Shown one piece after another: positions 7,552 through 28,864 of a DNA stretch of 64,000 nt; the first letter of the stretch is position 1; every line of letters begins with the position of its first letter. The notes under the pieces were generated by a model that made no database searches, was not told the DNA's origin, and saw nothing but the letters and a program-made list of their open reading frames with translations. The position numbers and the translations under genes were made by a program. Where the stretch lies: positions 28,727-92,726 of IMG/VR virus record IMGVR_UViG_3300005077_000936; one strand, given 5' to 3'. Source of the DNA: a virus.

Positions 7552-7553
7552 CA

Positions 7554-7661
7554 ATGAAGCCGAAAAACAAAAGACTTAGGCTTGAAGCCAGACAAAAGAA
7601 TTGGGATCAGAAGCACAGAGATGATCCTGCATTTAAGAGACCCGGAAGCTTTAAAAAGTAA
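7554..7661 (+). CDS. 35-aa basic protein missed by the ORF track (MKPKNKRLRLEARQKNWDQKHRDDPAFKRPGSFKK)
   Basis: Exactly fills the gap between neighbouring genes (2-nt spacers on both sides). Confidence 0.7.
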   Translation: MKPKNKRLRLEARQKNWDQKHRDDPAFKRPGSFKK

Positions 7662-7663
7662 CT

Positions 7664-7852
7664 ATGGCAAAAGCAATAATTACCAAATTGTTCTGTCCTC
7701 ATAAATGGCATAGCCACGCAAAGACTACCAAGATGAATCCCATGTACTACATGAACACAGAGGAAAAGCTTGAAGTGGTTCAGTCATCAGGAAAGACAAC
7801 AGAAGTATTAATTTGTGATAGTTGTGGAAAAGTTAAGGTGATTAGGTATTAA
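7664..7852 (+). CDS. small Cys/His protein (DUF1660-like pattern)
   Basis: KLFCPHKW...CDSCGK. Confidence 0.6.
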   Translation: MAKAIITKLFCPHKWHSHAKTTKMNPMYYMNTEEKLEVVQSSGKTTEVLICDSCGKVKVIRY

Positions 7853-7857
7853 ATTTG
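7850..7857 (+). promoter_or_regulatory. Bacteroidota-type -7 promoter element (TAnnTTTG)
   Basis: TAAATTTG. The identical 10-mer TAAATTTGTA also occurs at 7279 and 25764, each directly upstream of a gene. Confidence 0.5.
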
Positions 7858-7883
7858 TAATTCACTTTTAACCCTCTACAGCT

Positions 7884-7922
7884 ATGGCAAGGAAGAAGAA
7901 AGGGAAGGGAAAGGGCTGCTAA
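7884..7922 (+). CDS. 12-aa micropeptide MARKKKGKGKGC
   Basis: ATG...TAA after an AT-rich leader; purine-rich Lys/Gly codons; bracketed by a promoter-like motif and a terminator. Confidence 0.55.
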   Translation: MARKKKGKGKGC

Positions 7923-7941
7923 CCTTAGTACCACCACAATC

Positions 7942-7974
7942 AAGGGTGTGAGCACAAAGCTCATGCCCTTTTTC
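7942..7974 (+). terminator. intrinsic terminator
   Basis: AAGGGTGTGAGC-ACAAA-GCTCATGCCCTT followed by TTT. Confidence 0.8.
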
Positions 7975-7991
7975 TATTTAATCCACAGCTT

Positions 7992-9929
7992 ATGAAGAGA
8001 AGAGTCATTTATGATACTGAAATATACAGAAACCTTCTGCTCTATGTATTCTATGACATGGACACAGATGAAGTTTTTACTTTTCAGATCAGTCCTTATC
8101 TTGACCAGAGAAGGGAGCTAATGGAATTTTTAAGGGAAGTCAATCTTATGATTGGATTTAACAATCTTGAATTTGACTATCCTATTCTGCATCATCTACT
8201 TTACCTGCTCAGGCTTGATTTCAATATGCGTGGAAGCATTATACTTGAGAGGGTGTATAAACTTACACAATCTCTTTTAAATGCAGTACAGGGCTTTAAA
8301 AACATCATAAGAAACCCTGTAATAAAACAGCTTGACCTTAGGAAGATACATCACTTTGATAACAAAGCAAAGATGACAAGCCTGAAGGTTCTTGAATTTA
8401 ACCTGAAGATGGACAATATTGAAGAGTTGCCTTTTCCTCCTGATACTTTATTAACAGAGCAACAAGTGGAAAAAGTAGCCAAGTACTGTCAACATGATGT
8501 CAAGGCAACATTTTATACTCACAAAGTCACTATTGACCATATTCTTCTGAGAGAGAAGTTCTCTTCCATGTACTCCATAGATATGAGCAACTATAATAAT
8601 GCAAAGCTTGGAGAGCAGATTCTTGTTCAAATTTATAAAAGAAGGACAGGAGTTGAGAATATAGGAAAGACAATCAGGGAGTATATTGACTTAGGAGAAG
8701 TTATCTTTGATTATGTAAAGTTCTATTCACCTGAGTTTAATGCCATTAAACAATGGTTTTCAACAAAGGTAATTACTGAGACCAAGAATGTTTTTTCAAG
8801 GATCAGTCTTGATGAGCTTGGGCCCATAGCACCATATGCCAATGTTTCAAAGCCAATGCTTGTAAAAGGAAAGCTTAAGAATCTTAATGTAGTGAGAGAA
8901 GGCTTTCAGTATGACTTTGGAACAGGTGGAATACATGGGTCTATAGAGCCCGGTGTTTATGAAAGTGATGAATTTTATAGGATCATTGACATTGATGTAA
9001 AGAGCTACTATCCCAATTTGGGAATCCAGAACAGATTATATCCTGCTCACATGGGAGAAGTATTCTGTGACATTTACGAAGAGATTTACAATCAGAGACA
9101 GCAGTATCCAAAGGGGAGCATAGAGAATAAAGGGTTAAAGGAAGCACTTAATGCCAGTTATGGTAAAAGTAATTCTGAATATTCACCTTTATTTGACCCC
9201 AAATATACTATGTCCATTACTATTAATGGACAGCTTTTGATCTGCATGCTTGCAGAAAAATTCATTGATGAAGTGCAGAATTGCACCATACTTCAGACAA
9301 ATACTGATGGGATCACTGTAAAAGTGCCAAGGTCTGAAGAACATAAAATCATGGATATTTGCAGCAGATGGGAAAAGCTTACCAAGCTTGAGCTTGAATA
9401 TGCCCATTACCGCAAGATGGTTATCAGGGATGTCAACAATTATATTGCTGTCAAAGAAGATGGCAGCATCAAAAGAAAGGGTGCATTTGAATACAAGAGA
9501 GAGCTTCACCAGAATCATTCAATGCTGGTAGTGCCAAAAGCAATTGAAGCTTACTATGTCAATAATATACCCGTAGAGACATTCATAAGAAATCACAATG
9601 ATGTATATGATTTCTTTAAAAGGACAAAACTGAATAAACTATCATACCTGTTAGGAGTAGGAGCAGAAACAGTCCACCTTAACAGGGTAACAAGATATTA
9701 CATTTCCAAGGAAGGATATGAACTCATAAAAGTAATGCCTCCCTTAAAAGACAAGACAGTAAACCGTGAACATCATGTGGAAGCAGGGTATCTTTGTATG
9801 CCAATAAATATCATGATTCCTCCTGAACAAATATGGAATAACATTAACTATGATTACTACATTGCTGAAGCTAATAAAATCATAACAGCAGTTTCACTGC
9901 ATCAAAACGTGGAAGAAGAAGATGAATAA
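7992..9929 (+). CDS. polB: family B DNA polymerase
   Basis: Exo I YDTE, Exo II GFNNLEFD, Exo III YCQHDV; pol motifs DVKSYYP, KEALNASYGK, NTDG. Confidence 0.93.
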   Translation: MKRRVIYDTEIYRNLLLYVFYDMDTDEVFTFQISPYLDQRRELMEFLREVNLMIGFNNLEFDYPILHHLLYLLRLDFNMRGSIILERVYKLTQSLLNAVQGFKNIIRNPVIKQLDLRKIHHFDNKAKMTSLKVLEFNLKMDNIEELPFPPDTLLTEQQVEKVAKYCQHDVKATFYTHKVTIDHILLREKFSSMYSIDMSNYNNAKLGEQILVQIYKRRTGVENIGKTIREYIDLGEVIFDYVKFYSPEFNAIKQWFSTKVITETKNVFSRISLDELGPIAPYANVSKPMLVKGKLKNLNVVREGFQYDFGTGGIHGSIEPGVYESDEFYRIIDIDVKSYYPNLGIQNRLYPAHMGEVFCDIYEEIYNQRQQYPKGSIENKGLKEALNASYGKSNSEYSPLFDPKYTMSITINGQLLICMLAEKFIDEVQNCTILQTNTDGITVKVPRSEEHKIMDICSRWEKLTKLELEYAHYRKMVIRDVNNYIAVKEDGSIKRKGAFEYKRELHQNHSMLVVPKAIEAYYVNNIPVETFIRNHNDVYDFFKRTKLNKLSYLLGVGAETVHLNRVTRYYISKEGYELIKVMPPLKDKTVNREHHVEAGYLCMPINIMIPPEQIWNNINYDYYIAEANKIITAVSLHQNVEEEDE

Positions 9930-15500: not shown

Positions 15501-16514
15501 TTGTCTTATTTTTGTCCCATGTATGGATACCATAATCCTCAAGCATATACACAGTCAAGTATAATAGGAAGATACAGACAGGAAGATATATTTGCACTTG
15601 GAATGAATGGAGAGCTTCCCGAACTTGGAAAATATTATCTTTCACCTTTCAGAAAAGATGATACAAGTCCGGGATGCTTCTTTGAATGGTATAAAGACAA
15701 ACTTGTGTTTGTTGACTTTGCTGATCCTGTAATCAACAGGGACTGTTTCTACTTCATAAAGGATATATTCAACCTTCAGGATATACCTTCCACTCTTGAT
15801 TTGATAATGGAATGCTTTCTGCAAAACAAGACACCTGAAATGACTAACCCTGTTCTAAGGGAGTATCAGGAGAAAAAAAGAAGCCAAATATTTTTCAGAA
15901 CAAGACAATTTGAGGAAAGAGACAGACTTTTCTGGTCACCCTATGAAATAACATTCAGTCAGTTAAGATCAGATAATGTGTTTGCAGCATCAATGATAAA
16001 GATGTACCTTCCAAAGAAAGATAAATGGAGTATTTACAGACCTTCCCATATCTCTTATATAATAGGAGGATTTGGGGAAAGATGTAAAGTATACAATCCT
16101 ACAAGAAAGAAAGACAAATGGTTTACCAACTGTACCAAGGATGATGTAGGAGGCTTGAAGTCTGTTAATTACAAAAGTAATCATCTTATCATTACAAAGA
16201 GCTATAAGGATTGGAGGGTAGTTGTCAATCAAGGATATAACTCGGTTTGGTTTCAGAATGAAGGAATGTTTCCATCATCTGAGATACTGAATAATCTATT
16301 AACAATCCCAAAGGTCATTATATTCTTCGACAATGATGAGACAGGCTTCAAGGCTTCTAACTCCTTGAAGGAGCTTTTACTATCGTTTAATACCAATTCA
16401 CTCATTACTCAACTTTTCTCTCCTTTCTTTTATCTGAAGGATGCTTCGGATATCTTATCTGTTAAAGGAAGAGGAGAACTACAACAACTTTTATGGAAAG
16501 AATGCCATCTGTAA
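15501..16514 (+). CDS. DNA primase (TOPRIM)
   Basis: SPFRKDDTSPGC, ITKSYKD, FFDNDETG. The start may be 15519. Confidence 0.85.
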   Translation: MSYFCPMYGYHNPQAYTQSSIIGRYRQEDIFALGMNGELPELGKYYLSPFRKDDTSPGCFFEWYKDKLVFVDFADPVINRDCFYFIKDIFNLQDIPSTLDLIMECFLQNKTPEMTNPVLREYQEKKRSQIFFRTRQFEERDRLFWSPYEITFSQLRSDNVFAASMIKMYLPKKDKWSIYRPSHISYIIGGFGERCKVYNPTRKKDKWFTNCTKDDVGGLKSVNYKSNHLIITKSYKDWRVVVNQGYNSVWFQNEGMFPSSEILNNLLTIPKVIIFFDNDETGFKASNSLKELLLSFNTNSLITQLFSPFFYLKDASDILSVKGRGELQQLLWKECHL

Positions 16515-17146
16515 TTCATGATAGCTGGCATCCATATCTGATTGACGTTTTCCAAGATAATGACATGAAGTATCTGAATCATTTTGTACTTCCTAATTGT
16601 CAATTTGCTCCTGAGCCACAGAATATTTTCAGAGTTTTTTCCATGCCGTTGACGGATATTAAAGTTGTTATTATTGGACAAGACCCTTATTCTAAGGTAG
16701 GACAAGCAATAGGATATGCATTTGCTGTTCCTGATAATGTGCCAAAACCCTTCTCTTTCAGAATGATAGAGAAAGAAGTAGGTCATGAACTTGAGAACTC
16801 TCTTGCCTCTTGGATATCACAAGGAGTATTTCTTTTTAATACATCACTGACAGTGGAAGTTGGAAAGCCTAATAGTCATAAGGCTTACTGGCGTAGCTTT
16901 TCAATGGATGTAATAAGAATACTATCCTCTAAAGTCAATCCTGTATGGATGTTATGGGGATTGGATGCAATCTCACTTGAGAGGAACATTAAAGTGTTCC
17001 AGCTTGGAAACAAGTACATTCTCAAATCCCCCCATCCTGCTGCTGAAAGTTATGCTAACTATAAAGCAGGATTTCTTGGAAACAAACACTTTATCTTGGC
17101 TAACGAATTGTTAAAATCACAGAATAAACCCCTAATAAACTGGTAA
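16493..17146 (+). CDS. ung: uracil-DNA glycosylase, family 1
   Basis: VKVVIIGQDPY-like motif, GV.L.NT.LTV, HPAAES. Confidence 0.93.
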   Translation: MERMPSVIHDSWHPYLIDVFQDNDMKYLNHFVLPNCQFAPEPQNIFRVFSMPLTDIKVVIIGQDPYSKVGQAIGYAFAVPDNVPKPFSFRMIEKEVGHELENSLASWISQGVFLFNTSLTVEVGKPNSHKAYWRSFSMDVIRILSSKVNPVWMLWGLDAISLERNIKVFQLGNKYILKSPHPAAESYANYKAGFLGNKHFILANELLKSQNKPLINW

Positions 17147-17148
17147 TA

Positions 17149-17958
17149 ATGGATTCTAAAACACAATTCCCCACAAAGCATGTACTTGTCTATTCAACAG
17201 TAGGCAAGGGTGTGGTAGAGTTTGACACACAAGCTGCCACATGGTTAGACCTGAAGAAAAATCTCAGAGAGATGCAGGTCAAATTTGATGGCATGAAAGC
17301 TGTCATCGGAGAAAACAGACATACTCTTGAATCAGATCAGGCTACTCTTCCTGATGGTGATTTCAGCCTGTTCCTGATGCCTATTAAGGTTAAATCAGGA
17401 GCTTATACAAGAGCAGAACTTTTTGAAAGGATAAAAGCACTTGTTGCCAGCAATCCTGACATGAAACAAAAGTTCATCGTTGATGGAAAGAACATGACCC
17501 AACTCAGCACTGATAAGCTGAATGAACTTTGGGCAAAGCATGGTGAGAAAGGTGGAGTTATCTCTGCTCCTGCACCTACTGCCAAAGATACCGTAAAAGA
17601 GCAGAAACAGGCTGTCAGCAGTGTTGTGGAATCAATCAAGGGTAAGACCAGCATTGATCTTGTTACAGCACTAAACAAGCTTCATAAAGACCTTAATGAG
17701 ATAATCACTGATTATCCTGTAAAAGTCCCTACCTCTGAACTTGTTGAGTGGAACAAACACCTTGAAGCTGTTCTGAAAAACGCTGAAACTAAACCAAAGC
17801 AAAAATCTGAGCCTCCTGTTCCCATGGTTGACCCCGAAGAGGAAAGAAGAAAGGAAGAAAAGAGACTTGCAGAGGAAGCTGAAAAGAAAAGAAAGGATGA
17901 ACTTGACAAGAAAGCAAGGGATATGGCAAGGGAGTTTAAGGACATCGGAAGTTTCTAA
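17149..17958 (+). CDS. ubiquitin-like (beta-grasp) protein precursor with C-terminal extension
   Basis: Residues 1-84 have a beta-beta-alpha-beta pattern ending ...LFLMPIKVKSG, followed by a helical and low-complexity tail; located directly upstream of the E2/JAB/E1 genes. Confidence 0.65.
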   Translation: MDSKTQFPTKHVLVYSTVGKGVVEFDTQAATWLDLKKNLREMQVKFDGMKAVIGENRHTLESDQATLPDGDFSLFLMPIKVKSGAYTRAELFERIKALVASNPDMKQKFIVDGKNMTQLSTDKLNELWAKHGEKGGVISAPAPTAKDTVKEQKQAVSSVVESIKGKTSIDLVTALNKLHKDLNEIITDYPVKVPTSELVEWNKHLEAVLKNAETKPKQKSEPPVPMVDPEEERRKEEKRLAEEAEKKRKDELDKKARDMAREFKDIGSF

Positions 17959-17965
17959 TCTACTG

Positions 17966-18008
17966 AAAGTGAACTGAGTTGTATTTCTATAATTCAGTTC
18001 ACTTTTTT
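17966..18008 (+). terminator. strong intrinsic terminator
   Basis: 18-bp stem AAAGTGAACTGAGTTGTA/TATAATTCAGTTCACTTT, loop TTTC, followed by a T-run. Confidence 0.85.
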
Positions 18009-18033
18009 TATTTAATTACTAAACTTTACAACA

Positions 18034-18174
18034 ATGAAAGTCATAAATTGGATACTTGGACTCTTTGGTTACAAAATAATCAATGTTGCCAAAACAAAAG
18101 AACAAGAATTAAAGGAAAAGGCTGAAGATATACGCAGGTCATTTCCTGATGACATTTCCCAACCTCTTAGATGA
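18034..18174 (+). CDS. 46-aa protein missed by the ORF track (MKVINWILGLFGYKII...)
   Basis: AT-rich leader; its TGA overlaps the E2 ATG (ATGA); amphipathic N-terminus. Confidence 0.65.
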   Translation: MKVINWILGLFGYKIINVAKTKEQELKEKAEDIRRSFPDDISQPLR

Positions 18175-19370
18175 TGAGATCAGAAATAGACCAAAGAATA
18201 GTAGAAAAAAGCAATATGCTTCGTAATTGGTGGGAAGACAGAGATATTACTAATACTCTTATAAAGATGAAAAGAGTTTCAAGAAGAGCAGTAAAATTCA
18301 TAAAAGACATAATTCCCATACTTGAAAATGTATATCCCAGTTTATGGGATATACAGTTCTTTCCTTACTCTGGAAATTATCAGGGAATATCTTTCAGAGA
18401 AACAGAGAAGAGATACTCTTTTTCTACATCAGATGTAAGATTTGTCACCTATCTTCCCAATATCGTAATACATTTTCCTTATTCAAAGATGACTAACATG
18501 AATAATCAAACCCATGAAATATATGATATTTATGTAAGGATTCCCATTGAATCATCTGGAAGAAGTATAATGATTACCAGAATACTTGGATTAAGACAAA
18601 GTTACTCTTACGCAGAAGCTATAAGTAACTATCGTTTTAGTCATCTTACATCAAGATCAGTGTCAGAACCTCCTGTATATGATTCTTTCTGTCTTGGATC
18701 AGGAGAGATAAACCAATGTATGGCAATGTTTAACAGTACTCAGAACCTTGCTACATTTAAACATTTCCTTTTCTACATAGAAAGTTATCTTGCTTATGAA
18801 AGCATAGAGGGAGTACCCTATGAAAAATTTGAGAAGATAAGTTCTTTTAGAGGAGCAAGATTTACTGATATTCCCAATTATGATCTCATAACAGTTTACA
18901 AAACTATTACTCAAAACATACCATTATATAAACAAGAGTATCCATTTGATTTAAGATTAACATCATCAAATGGAAAAATTAAAATTGGAGATATGGTTCA
19001 CTTTGAGAAAATAGTTAACAGGATCATTAATATGGCAATAAGAAATGGAGGGGTTCCAAGACATTTTCCTTCTGAACAATTGATATTTATGTTCAAATTA
19101 CCTGATGGAAGCAGAACAGATGCATCAACAGATGTTACTCCTTCAGGAGACATTATCTTTAATGATGAGCATTTCTATTTCAGAGGAGAAAAAAGAATAA
19201 TGAAAATAGTTGGACATGCTGTTGATTACAGTAGAATAAGAATATATGAACAAAGAGTTGTCAAACCTAAAGTACTTAACTATGTCAAAGAAAGAATTGA
19301 ACACAAACTCAACTACACCTTCACTGCCCGTAATATCACTGAAAGAATTAATCAAAGTAGTAGTTCCTGA
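18171..19370 (+). CDS. prokaryotic E2-like (ubiquitin-conjugating fold) protein
   Basis: YRFSHL followed by DSFCLGSG (His...Cys spacing of the E2 active site), in context with Ubl, JAB and ThiF genes. Confidence 0.6.
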   Translation: MMRSEIDQRIVEKSNMLRNWWEDRDITNTLIKMKRVSRRAVKFIKDIIPILENVYPSLWDIQFFPYSGNYQGISFRETEKRYSFSTSDVRFVTYLPNIVIHFPYSKMTNMNNQTHEIYDIYVRIPIESSGRSIMITRILGLRQSYSYAEAISNYRFSHLTSRSVSEPPVYDSFCLGSGEINQCMAMFNSTQNLATFKHFLFYIESYLAYESIEGVPYEKFEKISSFRGARFTDIPNYDLITVYKTITQNIPLYKQEYPFDLRLTSSNGKIKIGDMVHFEKIVNRIINMAIRNGGVPRHFPSEQLIFMFKLPDGSRTDASTDVTPSGDIIFNDEHFYFRGEKRIMKIVGHAVDYSRIRIYEQRVVKPKVLNYVKERIEHKLNYTFTARNITERINQSSSS

Positions 19371-20493
19371 GCATGTGAAGGACCAGATAAAGTATCTCTG
19401 TGCAAAGATACCAAACAATGAATGGTCAGGGGCATTATTTTATGATGTCAAAGGGTCTATTAAAGATCCTGAAAACTTTTCCATTGAACTAAAGGAAATT
19501 TTTCCTATGGATATTGGAAGTGGTGCACATACAGAATATTCACCTGATGAGGAACTTGCTACATTTATGATGGACAATCCTGAGTTTCTGCCAAAGCCTG
19601 ATGGAACAGGAATGAAAATGGGACATATCCACAGTCATAATACAATGGGTGTATTCTTCTCAGCAGAAGATGACTCAGAGTTGAATGATAATTCATCAAA
19701 CCATAACTATTATCTTTCAGTTGTCACCAATAACAAGCTTGAATTTGCTATCAAAATTGCTTTCCGTGGCAAGGTATCAGTTTCAGGTAGTGATGAAAAT
19801 GGTGAACCTTATATTATGCAGAGCAATGACGAAGTCATGTTTGTATATAAAGGAGTTGCTTATAATACTCTTCCTGTAGTTAACAGTACTTTCAGGAGCA
19901 GGATAGCATTTCTGACTGAAGAAGCAAAAAGGAAAGAAGAGAAAAGGAGAATAGAAATGGATAGCAGGTTCAAAGCAAGGGATTATTCTGCTGATAATAA
20001 GAAATATCAGGGAAAGCATTTCCAGCCTGAGCTTCCACTGGACAGTAAGACTCCTTATCATCATCCTTTAAGGATACATGAGATTCCCATTGATCAGCAA
20101 CTTGTTGATGATGTTCCTGAAAGCACTGCACTTGTTGATGAACAGTTTGTAATCAGACTTCTCTGCCTTAATAAAGGATATGAAAGGTATGCTACAATTG
20201 GTGAAGTACTTCAGGAAATAGAGAAAACTTATGAGATATATGACTATATCATGAAATACAGTACAGAGATAGTTGATATCTATTTTTCTCTTTATAGGGA
20301 AATATACGGAGAGGCAATGACCATTGAACAGATGATAGAAGATATGGATGAAACTATGATGCTTCTTGAAGACTACATAGAATCTTTTCAATGGGTTGAT
20401 TTCATTACTGATAGCCTGCAACAGCTTGCTTACAGATTTGAAGATTCTCTTATGTCAAATAATATTAACGAGGAAGAACATGGGAAGAGATGA
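19282..20493 (+). CDS. JAB/MPN+ metalloprotease with acidic C-terminal extension
   Basis: NEWSG (catalytic Glu) and GHIHSHNTMGVFFSAEDD (HxH..S..D JAMM motif); start refined to ATG 19282. Confidence 0.88.
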   Translation: MSKKELNTNSTTPSLPVISLKELIKVVVPEHVKDQIKYLCAKIPNNEWSGALFYDVKGSIKDPENFSIELKEIFPMDIGSGAHTEYSPDEELATFMMDNPEFLPKPDGTGMKMGHIHSHNTMGVFFSAEDDSELNDNSSNHNYYLSVVTNNKLEFAIKIAFRGKVSVSGSDENGEPYIMQSNDEVMFVYKGVAYNTLPVVNSTFRSRIAFLTEEAKRKEEKRRIEMDSRFKARDYSADNKKYQGKHFQPELPLDSKTPYHHPLRIHEIPIDQQLVDDVPESTALVDEQFVIRLLCLNKGYERYATIGEVLQEIEKTYEIYDYIMKYSTEIVDIYFSLYREIYGEAMTIEQMIEDMDETMMLLEDYIESFQWVDFITDSLQQLAYRFEDSLMSNNINEEEHGKR

Positions 20494-21172
20494 CAGATTT
20501 AAGGACATAGAATGGTATGTACCAAGTGGAATAGCATGCCTTGTAGGTGGAGCAGGTGGAATTTCATCATGGCTCATTTTTCTTCTTTCAAGAGCAGGCT
20601 TTACATGTACTGTTTTTGATGATGACATAATTGAAGAACATAATCTTGGAGGACAGTTATATGCAAATGACCATGTAGGAAGGCTTAAAGTTGAATCCCT
20701 TTCTGATACTGTCTCCAGATATACAGGTCAATGGCTTGATACAGTAGATACTCGTTATGATTCTTATTCAATTAATCATGAACTTATGTTTTGTGGGTTT
20801 GATAACATGCAAGCAAGAAAAGACTTTTATTTAAGGTGGAAAGAAAAGGTAAATGAAGAAGATACTGATAAAGGTCTTTGTCTCTTTATTGATGGAAGGC
20901 TTCTTGCAGAGCAATATCAAATCATTGCAATCAGGGGAACTGATGAAGACAGGATGCAACAGTATGAAGAAAAGTATCTTTTTACCGATGATGAAGTAGA
21001 TGATGCTGTATGTACCATAAGACAAACATCTCACATTGCTGCAATGATGGCAGGAAATATGGTAAGTATTATTACTAATCATATTGCCAATCATAAGACA
21101 AGACATAATGTGAGGTATATTCCCTTCTTTACTTCCTATCTTGGGCCATTAACTTTAACAGAAACAATATGA
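20480..21172 (+). CDS. ThiF/E1-like activating enzyme
   Basis: VGGAGGISS nucleotide loop, DDDIIEEHNLGGQ, CGFDNMQAR, IDGR, candidate catalytic Cys in AVCT; start refined to ATG 20480. Confidence 0.9.
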   Translation: MGRDDRFKDIEWYVPSGIACLVGGAGGISSWLIFLLSRAGFTCTVFDDDIIEEHNLGGQLYANDHVGRLKVESLSDTVSRYTGQWLDTVDTRYDSYSINHELMFCGFDNMQARKDFYLRWKEKVNEEDTDKGLCLFIDGRLLAEQYQIIAIRGTDEDRMQQYEEKYLFTDDEVDDAVCTIRQTSHIAAMMAGNMVSIITNHIANHKTRHNVRYIPFFTSYLGPLTLTETI

Positions 21173-21840
21173 GACGGATAGTTAATATATCTTTAGATAA
21201 AGAAAGGCTTTTCTCAAGTCTTATTGGATATGTAAATCCAAGAGGAGAGGATTTTCAATCAGAGTATTGTCTATCCATTATGGGAACAAGTATGGACAAT
21301 GATTTTATTCCTGTATTTGCAGGAGGAATATCTCAAGTAATTACAGTAGGAAATCGAAGGGCACTCTTGTATTCCTTATACTCAATGAATTCTGTGTCTG
21401 CATTTACAGTAGGAAGGTCAAGAAGATTTAGAACCAGTCATGGAGAGGCAATACATAACTATGACGCAGGAGCACTTGTAATCCAGAGAGAAAGATATTC
21501 TTTCATGAAAGATTGTCTTTATAAGGAGTCAGGTGAAGGAGCAACATTACTTCTTACTCTTGCTGTAAGAAGGGATAAATTCTGGACATTCAGGAGCAAC
21601 TTCTCTTATGGTTACATGGCTCTCTTTATTTCTGATGCATTCATGGAAAACTCAGAATTTAAGCCAGCAAGAAGTAAATTTGCATCTTATATCAGGACTG
21701 TAAAAGAACTCGGAATAGATGTAGTAACTACTTCATCAATTGAGAAATGGTGCTTTAATACAAGCATTGCACTACCTACATTTAATAGTCTTCAAGAAAG
21801 AAGAGAATTCTTTGGAGGTCTTACAAATCTAATAACATGA
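21169..21840 (+). CDS. hypothetical protein coupled to the E1 gene
   Basis: ATGA overlaps at both ends. Confidence 0.75.
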   Translation: MRRIVNISLDKERLFSSLIGYVNPRGEDFQSEYCLSIMGTSMDNDFIPVFAGGISQVITVGNRRALLYSLYSMNSVSAFTVGRSRRFRTSHGEAIHNYDAGALVIQRERYSFMKDCLYKESGEGATLLLTLAVRRDKFWTFRSNFSYGYMALFISDAFMENSEFKPARSKFASYIRTVKELGIDVVTTSSIEKWCFNTSIALPTFNSLQERREFFGGLTNLIT

Positions 21841-22274
21841 ACAATGCTGAGAAGCCTAATTATGGGCGTAGAAACAAAAACAAAGGTAATAGTGCTGAAA
21901 GACTTTATGCTAAACTATTCAGGGAAGCAGGATTTGATAAATGCAGAACATCAAGAGAAGGTTCAAGACTTCATGATGACTGTGCCATTGATCTTATCTT
22001 TATTCCCTGTTCCGTTCAGATAAAAGCAGGAAAGCAGAGGGGAATGAATGTATCAAAAGTTCTTTCTGAAATGGATGAAAGAATCAAGATTGCTTTTCCT
22101 GAAGGTTATCCTGAGCACACTTTACCAAGAGTTGTCATACATCATAAGGACAGGGAACAAGGAAAAAGAGAAAGAAATGAATATGACAGTATTGTTTCCA
22201 TGACATTTGATACATTTTTAAAACTACTAAAATCATACACAAATGATAATAAGAACACCAAAGGAATTACTTGA
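21837..22274 (+). CDS. PD-(D/E)XK nuclease, Holliday junction resolvase-like
   Basis: KGNSAER, IDLI, VQIK. Confidence 0.75.
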   Translation: MNNAEKPNYGRRNKNKGNSAERLYAKLFREAGFDKCRTSREGSRLHDDCAIDLIFIPCSVQIKAGKQRGMNVSKVLSEMDERIKIAFPEGYPEHTLPRVVIHHKDREQGKRERNEYDSIVSMTFDTFLKLLKSYTNDNKNTKGIT

Positions 22275-23505
22275 AGAATATGAATCCCACACAGGAGTAA
22301 GTCAAAGTGAACTTAAATCAACTCTTGGTGGGATTCATGGCTACAAAAGATTTCTTGAGAATAAGAAAAACATAAGTGATAAGTATTATGATGAGCCTGC
22401 TGAGCACTTTATTATAGGCACAGGGGTAGATCATCTTATTACTTATGGTGCAGAAAGCTTTAATAACACTTACTATATAAGTGATATTGAGGAAAAACCT
22501 TCTGATGCCATTATGTCCATTGTAAAGGCTGTATTTGATACAGCAGTAGTGGAGATGCAAGAATCACAAATGGAACAACTTCTCACCCTTGATATGTATA
22601 GGGATATGATAATTCTATCTGCAAATACTCATCAATGGAACAAGTCATGGGGAGACGATGCCAAGTACAATAACATTGTGAAGGCAGGTAGTAACTATTT
22701 CAATGATCTGGTTAAAGGAAAAGGAAGGAAAATTCTTTCTCTTGACCAGTACAACTCTATCATTTCAGTAAGTAATTCTTTTGTAAATGGTGCAACTAAA
22801 GAATATCTTACTGACGATGATGAATATGCCAAAATATATCTTTTCTTTCAGGTTCCTGTTTATTTCAGCTACAGTGGACTTCCTGCAAAAGGTCTTGTTG
22901 ATTTAATAAGAGTTGAAGTAACGGATAGGGAAGCTTCTGTAAGAGGCTTTGACCTAAAGACAATGTCAGGAATGACATCTGATTTTCTTTCTTCTTATCG
23001 AAGAAGAAGATATGATGTTCAGGCTTCTTGGTATAGGAAAGGAATACTGAATGAGTGGCAGGCTTTTTTGTTAAGATTGCTTGGGCTTAATGCTATTGAG
23101 AAATCTGATTATGATCTTATTACCAAGAAAAGAATAAAGTTTGAAGACGATTTCTTTTTCTTGGTAGAAAGCACAAACAATACAGGAGTTCCCATGGTAT
23201 ACAGAATGGGAACGAATGAATTGGTAAAGGCAGAAAGAGGAAGAAAGAAACTGATGTATGATGCTCTTGATGAACAGTTAAGGGAAATTCATGTAATGTA
23301 TATTCCTGAAGTCAAAGGTTATTCAGACATGCATAAAATGGTCTCATTTTACAGAAAGCAGGGTGACAACATTACTATTCCTTACGTTGAATCAACATTC
23401 TTTAACATTACATGGGAGAATACAGATATTTTCCTTCCTGAAAATTCTGGCACAAGACTCATGAGCAATGTAACAGTTGACATTGAAGATTCTGATCCAT
23501 TCTAA
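22243..23505 (+). CDS. PD-(D/E)XK exonuclease (RecE/DUF3799-like)
   Basis: SQSELK, GTGVDHL, KGLVDL, DLKT, YDVQASWY. Confidence 0.8.
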   Translation: MIIRTPKELLEEYESHTGVSQSELKSTLGGIHGYKRFLENKKNISDKYYDEPAEHFIIGTGVDHLITYGAESFNNTYYISDIEEKPSDAIMSIVKAVFDTAVVEMQESQMEQLLTLDMYRDMIILSANTHQWNKSWGDDAKYNNIVKAGSNYFNDLVKGKGRKILSLDQYNSIISVSNSFVNGATKEYLTDDDEYAKIYLFFQVPVYFSYSGLPAKGLVDLIRVEVTDREASVRGFDLKTMSGMTSDFLSSYRRRRYDVQASWYRKGILNEWQAFLLRLLGLNAIEKSDYDLITKKRIKFEDDFFFLVESTNNTGVPMVYRMGTNELVKAERGRKKLMYDALDEQLREIHVMYIPEVKGYSDMHKMVSFYRKQGDNITIPYVESTFFNITWENTDIFLPENSGTRLMSNVTVDIEDSDPF

Positions 23506-28212: not shown

Positions 28213-28864
28213 AGAAGGATTTGCTATTGTAGAAAGAGATACTCATATAGGAAAATGGGTTGAACAATATGGAAGACTTGATTTTGATCAGAATGCTCTT
28301 CCAAGATATCTTCCTTTTTTCAAACAAGGAGATGTACTTCTTAATATAGGTGCTAATATAGGAGCTTATGCTTATGCATTCAAAGATAAGGCTTCTGAAA
28401 TACATTGTTTTGAACCTAATCAGGAAGCCTTTGATTGTCTTGTTCACAATCTCGGAAAGATAAATAATACTTTCCTGTTTAACTATGCTGTTGGAGAAGA
28501 AGGAATTCCTTATGTTCTTAATACAGAGGATGATAATATAGGAGCTGCTTTTATTAAAGAGTCTCCTGAATCTTCTCTGAGAACTATAAGTATTGATTCC
28601 ATGTACTGGATAAAGGTTGACTTTATTCTTATGGATTGTGAAGGATCAGAACTTGCTGTACTTAAAGGTGCTGAAAAAACAATCAATAATTTCCATCCTA
28701 TTATGGTAATTGAAATCAATGATGGAGCACTACAAAGAAATAATGTAACAAGACAAGATGTCTTTAAATGGCTTGAAGATCATGATTACACATTCAGAAA
28801 CATTTATGAGACTGAAGGCTTTGAATACATACAAATGGATATAATCTGTTTCCCTAAATCTTAA
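28199..28864 (+). CDS. FkbM-family SAM-dependent methyltransferase
   Basis: NIGANIG, FEPN, DFILMDCEGSELAVLKGA. Confidence 0.9.
   Translation: MKITKEGFAIVERDTHIGKWVEQYGRLDFDQNALPRYLPFFKQGDVLLNIGANIGAYAYAFKDKASEIHCFEPNQEAFDCLVHNLGKINNTFLFNYAVGEEGIPYVLNTEDDNIGAAFIKESPESSLRTISIDSMYWIKVDFILMDCEGSELAVLKGAEKTINNFHPIMVIEINDGALQRNNVTRQDVFKWLEDHDYTFRNIYETEGFEYIQMDIICFPKS

Follow-up and report, generated by a model that had tools for sequence, protein, structure and literature searches.

A probable ubiquitin-like conjugation cassette in the replication gene block of a branch of crAss-like phages

What is a set of genes that looks like a complete ubiquitin-like conjugation pathway doing among the replication genes of a phage? 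The four genes in question, called g1 to g4 here, lie at positions 17149 to 21172 of a 64,000-nucleotide stretch of DNA (the window), which is positions 28,727 to 92,726 of the virus record IMGVR_UViG_3300005077_000936, a 98.7-kb record rated 100% complete. An earlier note, made from the letters alone, had read them as genes for a ubiquitin-like modifier (Ubl), an E2-like protein, a JAMM protease, and an E1 enzyme. All four open reading frames (ORFs) were found on the plus strand over that interval, each quoted motif is present in the sequence with its codons checked, and the motif residues coincide with invariant columns of the family alignments. Bacterial gene sets of E1, E2, JAB, and Ubl were predicted in 2006 (Iyer, Burroughs and Aravind; PMC1779556) and later characterized as the Bil, CBASS type II, and Bub systems (PMC11601596). 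The generic features of a Ubl cascade as understood by Iyer et al. can be recognized here from sequences and models, namely, a β-grasp domain with a conserved Gly, the residues of an E1, a crossover-loop Cys, and a JAMM motif. We conclude that the block probably encodes a phage-run, thioester-type Ubl conjugation cascade embedded in the replication genes.

The N-terminal part of g1 has the fold expected of a modifier. In its AlphaFold2 (AF2) model, residues 1 to 80 have a pLDDT of about 95 and follow the β-β-α-β-β order of the β-grasp; confidence dips around residues 81 to 90, and the tail is modeled as a small helical domain (residues 88 to 135), a disordered linker, and a long charged helix. 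Foldseek comparison with the PDB returned ubiquitin, UBX, NEDD8, ISG15, SUMO, and archaeal ubiquitin as nearly all of the top 50 matches (probability of 1.00, TM score by target of 0.55 to 0.70, 75 to 88 residues aligned). Residues 1 to 84 thus model as the β-grasp domain ending in KSG that had been proposed for them. Gly84 (codon 17398-17400) is the sole invariant column among 49 g1 sequences, with Pro68, Lys80, and Lys82 conserved in at least 90%, and the roughly 80-residue N-terminal domain always closes with K-x-K-[S/A]-G. We take the end of the domain in the window, I-K-V-K-S-G, to resemble the L-R-L-R-G-G of ubiquitin in its alternating basic residues. What follows the invariant Gly varies greatly in length, from a single residue in loci L019, L034, and L026 and two to six residues in L040, L015, and L038 up to about 185 residues in the window, the longest of the range. 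Gly84 is presumed, by analogy, to be the mature C terminus, the tail being cut off behind it. No Pfam family matched g1 (only noise was seen across the 49 relatives), and comparison with the ThiS profile revealed no relationship. Because neither detects the protein, g1 is, as far as sequence comparison goes, a new sequence family of the ubiquitin fold. Its tail has no family or fold match in Pfam or the ESM Atlas.

The g4 product resembles the enzymes that activate such modifiers. It matches Pfam ThiF (6.3e-10, 39 bits against a cutoff of 28.1), and a profile of its family, searched against the PDB, found UBA5 (1e-14), MccB, ThiF, the E1s of NEDD8, SUMO, and ubiquitin (Uba1), and Cap2 chains (3.5e-8); hhalign against Escherichia coli ThiF gave a probability of 97.8%. 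The residues G24-A-G26-G27, D49, N55, Q59, K70, D108-N109, and R113 are invariant and match the nucleotide- and Mg-binding residues of ThiF. Cys178, in the motif AVCT (codon 21011-21013), is invariant in all 31 sequences and is aligned to ThiF Cys184, which marks the position of the crossover-loop Cys of E1 enzymes. The Zn-binding CxxC of ThiF is absent. These results bear out the earlier note, which had claimed a ThiF/E1 with a candidate Cys in VCT, and support the prediction that g4 encodes a minimal ThiF-type E1 of 230 residues with its adenylation residues intact. The crAss001 member of the family, Gp76 (L003:5542-6693), is annotated with 383 residues, about 150 more at the N terminus than the 226 to 250 residues found elsewhere in the family; the surplus is an additional domain or stems from a start called too far upstream.

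In GenBank, E1s of the g4 type carry the label "thiamine biosynthesis protein," the other cassette genes being mostly "hypothetical." The label points to another explanation, in which the Ubl is a sulfur carrier like ThiS, MoaD, or QbsE that is adenylated and thiocarboxylated by the E1, with the JAB protein trimming the precursor as in QbsCDE or CysO/Mec. Such a carrier would feed the thio-modification of a nucleotide, tRNA, or DNA, and g2 would be an unrelated Cys/His enzyme using the activated carrier. A single-domain E1 of this size is nearest in architecture to ThiF and MoeB, the surroundings speak of nucleotide metabolism (uracil-DNA glycosylase [UDG] here, dUTPase and ribonucleotide reductase nearby in relatives), and E2-less triads of JAB, E1, and Ubl have been described for sulfur transfer (Iyer 2006, PMC1779556). 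However, the best NCBIfam equivalog model scored g4 at 36.9 bits against a cutoff of 159, the Zn-binding CxxC is missing, and the complete 98.7-kb phage genome holds no rhodanese, PP-loop ATPase, MoaE, or cysteine desulfurase, a lack of sulfur-relay partners that we count in favor of a conjugation cascade. The Ubl, besides being unrelated to ThiS in sequence, ends in Ser/Ala-Gly instead of Gly-Gly and has ubiquitin-type modifiers as its best structural matches, and a UBC/UEV-like protein with an invariant Cys (g2, discussed below) always accompanies it. We therefore regard a sulfur-carrier function as improbable.

For g3, the earlier note's JAMM protease was recovered with the full motif, E59...H129-S-H131-x7-S139-x2-D142 (numbered from position 19246), whose residues are invariant or at least 90% conserved; CSN5 aligns with g3 on this motif. 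g3 itself stays under the Pfam Prok-JAB cutoff (E value of 0.013, 15.8 versus 25 bits), and 23 of its 32 relatives match that family, the best at 4.4e-6. Assignment of g3 as a JAB/JAMM metallopeptidase is supported by this pattern of conservation. No match is known for its C-terminal half, which is helical.

The assignment of g2 comes from structure. In its AF2 model (pLDDT of 80.8, pTM of 0.70), the N-terminal 200 residues or so adopt a UBC/UEV-like fold, and a further domain of unassigned fold runs from about residue 230 to residue 399. When the model was compared exhaustively with 48,161 PDB chains by VIA-align, UEV, E2, and RWD folds made up most of the top 50. Among them were the UEV domain of Tsg101 (Z score of 7.1 to 7.2, 131 of 139 residues, 3.5 Å), UbcH10 (6.1), UBE2E1 (6.1), UbcH5b (6.0), RWD domains, Citrobacter BubB (9eav_D; 6.0, 117 of 128 residues, 3.5 Å), and the E2 domain of Cap2 (5.0 to 5.1). 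Z scores of 5 to 7.2 fall in the range below 8 that the tool calls middling, and it is not on the Z score that we base the UBC/UEV call, but on how uniform the list is and how nearly completely the UEV/UBC domains are covered. Foldseek against the PDB gave only E values above 0.3, with the Tsg101 UEV domain and a CBASS E2 among the weak rows, and against the AlphaFold Database clusters and the ESM Atlas it gave nothing usable; the UBC/UEV trend is seen in the exhaustive VIA-align search only. The motifs S157-H158-L and F-C174-L-G176 (Cys codon 18690-18692) contain three of six positions, His158, Cys174, Gly176, Glu210, Ser211, and Gly214, that are 100% invariant among 150 representatives with at most 50% mutual identity. 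The model has Cys174 after the final strand of the sheet, ahead of the helix that follows, and His158 in the loop before this Cys; such an order of secondary-structure elements would put the two residues at the topological place of the HPN...Cys site of E2 enzymes. Thus, the part of the E2 claim that stands is a modeled UBC/UEV-like domain within g2 and an invariant His158 and Cys174; a link to any E2 at the sequence level did not emerge. From structural similarity, the invariant His and Cys, and gene context, we consider g2 a probable E2-like transfer enzyme.

The four genes travel together. Their order, g1-g2-g3-g4, was kept in every related locus examined, about 45, including those of phages as distant as crAss001 and Flavobacterium psychrophilum phage FpV4. 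The loci compared were 5 from metagenomes (fetched via g1 homologues), 36 from IMG/VR (fetched by a g2 pattern), and 3 from GenBank phages, and with the same order in all of them, the co-occurrence is far beyond chance. By tblastn with g4 and g2, the same neighborhood was found in the GenBank phages crAss001, DAC15, and DAC17, the PhiCrAssBcn series, several uncultured "cr" phages, Dulem virus 41, and the F. psychrophilum phages FpV4 and Fpv1-21; DNA nearly identical to the window was not found among GenBank phages. The crAss001 equivalents are Gp79, Gp78, Gp77 ("metalloprotease"), and Gp76 ("thiamine biosynthesis protein ThiF"). As a word-based homologue search with g2 retrieved only the query itself, relatives of g2 were gathered via gene neighborhoods and a degenerate-pattern scan. 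The resulting profile matched 3,348 clusters at 50% identity among 1.84 billion representatives (3,174 of them at an E value of ≤1e-10), and all of the ESM Atlas clusters closest to g3 come from viruses. The genome of the window has a crAss-like layout, a plus-strand replication block followed by giant minus-strand ORFs of up to 4,568 codons. The earlier note had spoken of crAss-like phages in general. More precisely, the cassette is a fixed feature of one large branch, comprising crAss001/DAC15-like phages, FpV4-like phages, and many environmental relatives; for prototype crAssphage, it did not turn up in the searches run.

Two side observations concern the edges of this distribution. Among 185,579 species genomes scanned with a single g2 pattern, there was one match, on a 373-kb contig of a Puia sp. 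metagenome-assembled genome (DASYBV010000020.1, at about 282 to 293 kb; L048/L050), where the cassette E1 adjoins the g2 match (E value of 4e-83). This locus may belong to a crAss-like phage that is integrated or persists, or it may be a chimera made in binning or assembly. Distant E1s of the same subfamily (27 to 28% identity, profile E value of about 1e-32) occur in Xanthomonas jumbo phages, such as PhiXhv-15 (L047, 4932-5615), and in IMG/VR contigs of 150 to 190 kb (L001 and L002). These phages and contigs have no detectable g1 to g3 partners of the cassette, and their E1s were left out of the family; in PhiXhv-15, the gene sits behind that of an 892-residue unknown protein, near topoisomerase genes.

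Further evidence of constraint comes from inserts in the enzyme genes of L032, L033, and L015. The JAB gene is broken inside the segment coding for HxH...S and the E1 gene after ...EVNLA. In L032 (inserts within 5330-8935), a minus-strand LAGLIDADG ORF (5885-6745) lies in the JAB gene and a second LAGLIDADG ORF (7868-8935) in the E1 gene. The inserts are probably homing introns or inteins in both genes. Homing elements typically inhabit the most constrained DNA, and inserts with homing endonucleases in the active-site coding DNA of JAB and E1 therefore count in favor of the cascade.

The modifier gene is set apart from the enzyme genes by a hairpin that begins 7 nucleotides past the g1 stop codon (−23.4 kcal/mol, z score of −4.9). 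A hairpin followed by a U-run, of unrelated sequence, occurs at the same position in L006, L007, L008, L010, crAss001, and FpV4, i.e., together with the window in 7 of the 7 phages tested, so that position and not sequence is conserved. It is likely a terminator or attenuator separating the Ubl gene from the enzyme genes. With its gene ending a transcript or preceding an attenuator, the modifier would be made in larger amounts than the enzymes. Behind the hairpin is an ORF of 46 codons, in a slot where relatives have ORFs of 61 to 78 codons; one of these (L009:6701-6937) shares with it a weak C-terminal motif, A..IR.sFP..IS.PL, and the 46-codon ORF may be a real small gene. Given the terminator and this ORF between g1 and g2, the four genes may not form one simple transcription unit.

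A terminator between g1 and the enzyme genes would also suit an explanation by processing only. The β-grasp domain would then act in cis in folding or targeting, as a tag removed from the g1 tail by the JAB protein, as proposed for TAPI/TAPK of phage lambda, with the E1 and g2 acting elsewhere and no Ubl conjugated. In that phage precedent, a JAB protein accompanies a Ubl domain whose Gly is conserved, and there is neither an E1 nor an E2 (Iyer 2006, PMC1779556). The tails described above speak against it, since those of only 1 to 6 residues in several phages leave no cargo to release. In addition, the conserved part of g1 is the β-grasp domain with its terminal Gly, not the tail, and neither the E1 nor g2 is ever missing from the locus. 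We give this explanation very little credence.

If the block is a conjugation cascade, its course can be proposed step by step. g1 would be made as a pro-Ubl, probably in excess of the enzymes if the hairpin after its stop codon affects dosage. g3 would then cut past Gly84 (between KVKSG and the following A), freeing an 84-residue protein of ubiquitin fold with the basic tail K-x-K-S-G; this step is modeled on BubCD, which cuts BubAB after the conserved Gly, a JAB cleavage of a pro-Ubl that has thus a precedent (PMC11601596). The g4 enzyme, presumably a homodimer like ThiF, UBA5, or BubD, would adenylate Gly84 and load the Ubl on its crossover-loop residue Cys178, from which the Ubl would pass to Cys174 of g2. 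As no E3 is present, the additional C-terminal domain of g2, about 170 residues, probably selects the target. The Ubl would finally be joined to lysines in at least one phage or host protein; g3 may also take the mark off again.

Several observations weigh against such a cascade. The middling Z scores of g2 and the placing of its Cys174 by secondary-structure order have been mentioned. At the sequence level, g2 had no named match in Pfam, PADLOC, or NCBIfam and only unnamed families in PHROG; 35 of its relatives searched individually against Pfam gave no link to E2s, its family profile found no E2 among PDB sequences, and hhalign of the family with five Cap2 E2 domains from Bacteroidota genomes was negative. 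Given the terminator, the Ubl and the enzymes may be regulated differently. Behind the constant four-gene core stands a variable fifth gene that is not conserved across the family. No candidate for the target emerged from the analysis, and Bacteroidota are not known to have machinery that would read such a tag or degrade what carries it. Taking both sides together, we lean, with some hesitation, toward the wider view that a major crAss-like lineage, with cultured members infecting Bacteroides and Flavobacterium, runs its own Ubl conjugation as a core, replication-linked function, built on a hitherto unrecognized family of Ubls, a Cys-dependent E1 of minimal size, and a novel E2 family that carries its own domain for substrate binding.

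The fifth gene, g5 in the window, has no family or fold match in Pfam, PHROG, or the ESM Atlas. Its homologues are confined to closer relatives, and elsewhere a coupled gene of another family fills the slot; over about 40 loci (L011 to L046 plus the window), the slot coupled to the E1 stop codon holds at least 17 unrelated sequence clusters. g5 is possibly an accessory or target-related component.

What the cascade would be for is a separate question. The earlier note had suggested that host or phage proteins are tagged covalently, for example to disable defenses or remodel the replisome; the analysis pointed to no target for this. In all relatives, the cassette is locked between primase/UDG and resolvase/exonuclease genes, from which we weakly favor a role in modifying a phage replication or recombination protein or an interfering host factor. 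The replication genes of crAss001 belong to the middle transcriptional module (PMC8375218). A serious alternative, which we nonetheless think unlikely, is that the same machinery serves in conflict, tagging and disabling a host defense protein or the virion proteins of competing phages, or that its JAB protein strips Bil- or CBASS-type conjugates of the host; phage replication itself would not be what it serves. The characterized prokaryotic E1-E2-JAB systems are all involved in phage-host conflict, Bil and CBASS type II as well as, by context, Bub (PMC11601596). g4 weakly matches the PADLOC models of Cap2-type E1-E2 proteins (5e-6) and of BilD (2e-3), and the switching of the gene behind the E1 from family to family is what would be expected of an arms-race component. 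On the other hand, the PADLOC models of BilA, BilB, BilC, and Cap3 do not match g1 to g3, conservation is very deep, as the number of g2 clusters shows, and all relatives examined have the cassette at a fixed place among their core replication genes rather than in an accessory island of variable content. Modification of a replication-linked or host protein remains our weak preference.

The features of the locus are collected in Table 1. Head-to-tail plus-strand genes extend from 15501 to 23505, and the flanking genes named in the earlier note, UDG on one side and resolvase and exonuclease on the other, were all identified; UDG adjoins the cassette upstream in L006 to L010 as well. Gene extents needed partial correction, since the ORFs exist as described but g3 and g4 probably begin downstream of the longest-ORF starts. 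The g3 frame is open from 19246, with the likelier start given in the table, and the start listed for g4 probably applies as well, lying behind GAGGAAGAAC. From g2 to g5, each gene overlaps the next, which suggests translational coupling.

Table 1. Features of the cassette and its surroundings (positions in the window unless a locus is named)
Feature	Position	Strand	Basis or remark
Primase	15501-16514	+	Replication-block context
UDG	16493-17146	+	Pfam UDG, E value of 9.3e-10; ends 2 nucleotides before g1
g1 (Ubl precursor)	17149-17958	+	269 residues
g1, ubiquitin-like β-grasp domain, residues 1-84, ending IKVKSG	17149-17400	+	AF2, Foldseek, alignment
g1, variable C-terminal extension, residues 85-269	17401-17958	+	AF2 secondary structure, tails of relatives
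Intrinsic-terminator-like hairpin and T-run	17965-18013	+	19-bp stem; hairpin itself at 17965-18006
46-residue ORF, possible small gene	18034-18174	+	Overlaps g2 start (ATGA)
g2, 399 residues, probable E2-like transfer enzyme	18171-19370	+	AF2 model, structural search, invariant His158/Cys174
g3, 403 residues, predicted JAB/JAMM (MPN+) metallopeptidase domain and C-terminal helical region	19282-20493	+	JAMM motif, Pfam in relatives
g4, 230 residues, predicted minimal single-domain E1 (ThiF/MoeB/UBA5 type)	20480-21172	+	Pfam ThiF, profile search, hhalign
g5, 223 residues, coupled to E1 gene	21169-21840	+	4-nucleotide overlap with g4 stop
RusA-like resolvase	21837-22274	+	PHROG 244, 9.5e-13
Exonuclease VIII-like gene	22243-23505	+	PHROG 412, 3.2e-19
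Equivalent hairpins (approximate)	L006:6776-6822; L007:6809-6842; L008:6808-6845; L010:6746-6775; L003 (crAss001):2970-3013; L004 (FpV4):3546-3580		

Work on prokaryotic E1-E2-Ubl-JAB systems is very active, and so far they have been interpreted as defenses of the host against phages. Such systems are already known in bacteria, and what is new here is a virus-side, replication-linked version, a probably full kit at a fixed place in the replication module and in more than 3,000 sequence clusters. In the full-text literature, subscription papers being outside the scope, we found no description of the cassette. The analysis corrects a widespread misannotation ("thiamine biosynthesis protein" and "hypothetical protein") and adds the sequence families of the Ubl and of the E2-like protein, both new and invisible to Pfam models. 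A Cys-dependent E1 as small as 230 residues, as predicted here, could be a model for minimal Ubl activation. Because carriers can be cultured, namely, crAss001 on Bacteroides intestinalis, DAC15 and DAC17 on Bacteroides thetaiotaomicron, and FpV4 on F. psychrophilum, the proposal is directly testable. If it is true, Ubl conjugation in the bacterial world is a tool of viruses as well as of hosts, and its targets, whether they belong to the replisome, to recombination, or to the host, would mark out a new level at which phages control the cells they infect.

How, then, does the cassette relate to the systems already known? The ThiF/ThiS and MoeB/MoaD pairs, to which the public label refers, share with it the size, single domain, adenylation residues, and Cys position (ThiF C184) of the E1. 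They differ in the points on which the phage E1 falls short of them (equivalog cutoffs and Zn-binding CxxC) and in a Ubl that is unlike ThiS; in addition, the phage has JAB and E2-like partners and lacks genes for thiamine, molybdopterin, or sulfur donors. Membership in this sulfur-carrier group was rejected for the low equivalog scores and the absence of sulfur-relay partners, as was an assignment of g4 as a ThiF or MoeB orthologue for the former. PRTRC was rejected as well, with 33.5 bits for PRTRC_ThiF against a cutoff of 144.75, 12.4 bits for PRTRC_A against 101.8, and no match to the other PRTRC models.

The only phage precedent found in the literature covered is the pair TAPI (a Ubl) and TAPK (JAB plus NlpC/P60) of phages lambda and T1 (PMC1779556). 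There, too, a JAB protein goes with a phage Ubl that combines a conserved terminal Gly with a C-terminal extension. Unlike the cassette, the pair has no E1 and no E2-like protein and belongs to a tail assembly module, not to replication, and there is no sequence relationship.

CBASS type II has an E1 adenylation domain of the same superfamily, a noncanonical E2 fold, and a JAB antagonist (Cap3). Its Cap2, however, is an E2-E1 fusion that conjugates the C terminus of the CD-NTase without a separate Ubl, whereas the phage has a dedicated Ubl. The cassette was not assigned to CBASS type II, its E2-like and E1 genes being separate and no CD-NTase or effector family being found among the neighbors.

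Type I Bub, formerly 6E.1 (BubAB, BubCD, and BubE; Ye et al. 2024, PMC11601596), comes closer in several respects. Its Ubl carries an extension that is cut right after the conserved Gly by the JAB protein of the operon, and the phage Ubl is likewise extended. Its E1, too, is reduced to a ThiF/UBA5-like adenylation domain and has no separate IAD or CYS domain, and its E2 is a divergent UBC-fold protein, BubB being among the best structural matches of g2. Bub differs in fusing Ubl to E2 and JAB to E1, where the phage has four separate genes and a Ubl tail that is not an E2; g2 is three times as large as BubB. The E1 and E2 of Bub lack a catalytic Cys and form Tyr/Ser oxyesters, in contrast to the invariant Cys178 and Cys174 of the phage. 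Bub operons, moreover, lie on bacterial chromosomes and have CapW or CapH/CapP regulators, while the cassette is phage borne. Membership in type I Bub was rejected on the absence of fusions, the retained Cys residues, and the lack of any DUF6527/BubE match in a Pfam scan of ten proteins.

With Bil (BilABCD), the cassette shares Ubl, probable E2, JAB, and E1 as four separate genes, the absence of an E3, and, presumably, Cys chemistry of the thioester type; the E2 of Bil is thought to choose the target (PMC11601596). The E1 of Bil has three parts, IAD, AAD, and CYS, unlike the single 230-residue domain of the phage, and Bil is a host defense that tags phage tail proteins, whereas the cassette is owned by the phage. 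Bil membership was rejected as well, the PADLOC BilD match being confined to residues 59 to 143, only a portion of the Rossmann fold, and g1 to g3 having no PADLOC matches at all. By analogy, the cassette would work most like Bil, with separate proteins and Cys chemistry, and would share its minimal E1 and pro-Ubl with Bub. It is a probable phage-side E1-E2-Ubl-JAB system that stands outside Bil, Bub, CBASS type II, and PRTRC.

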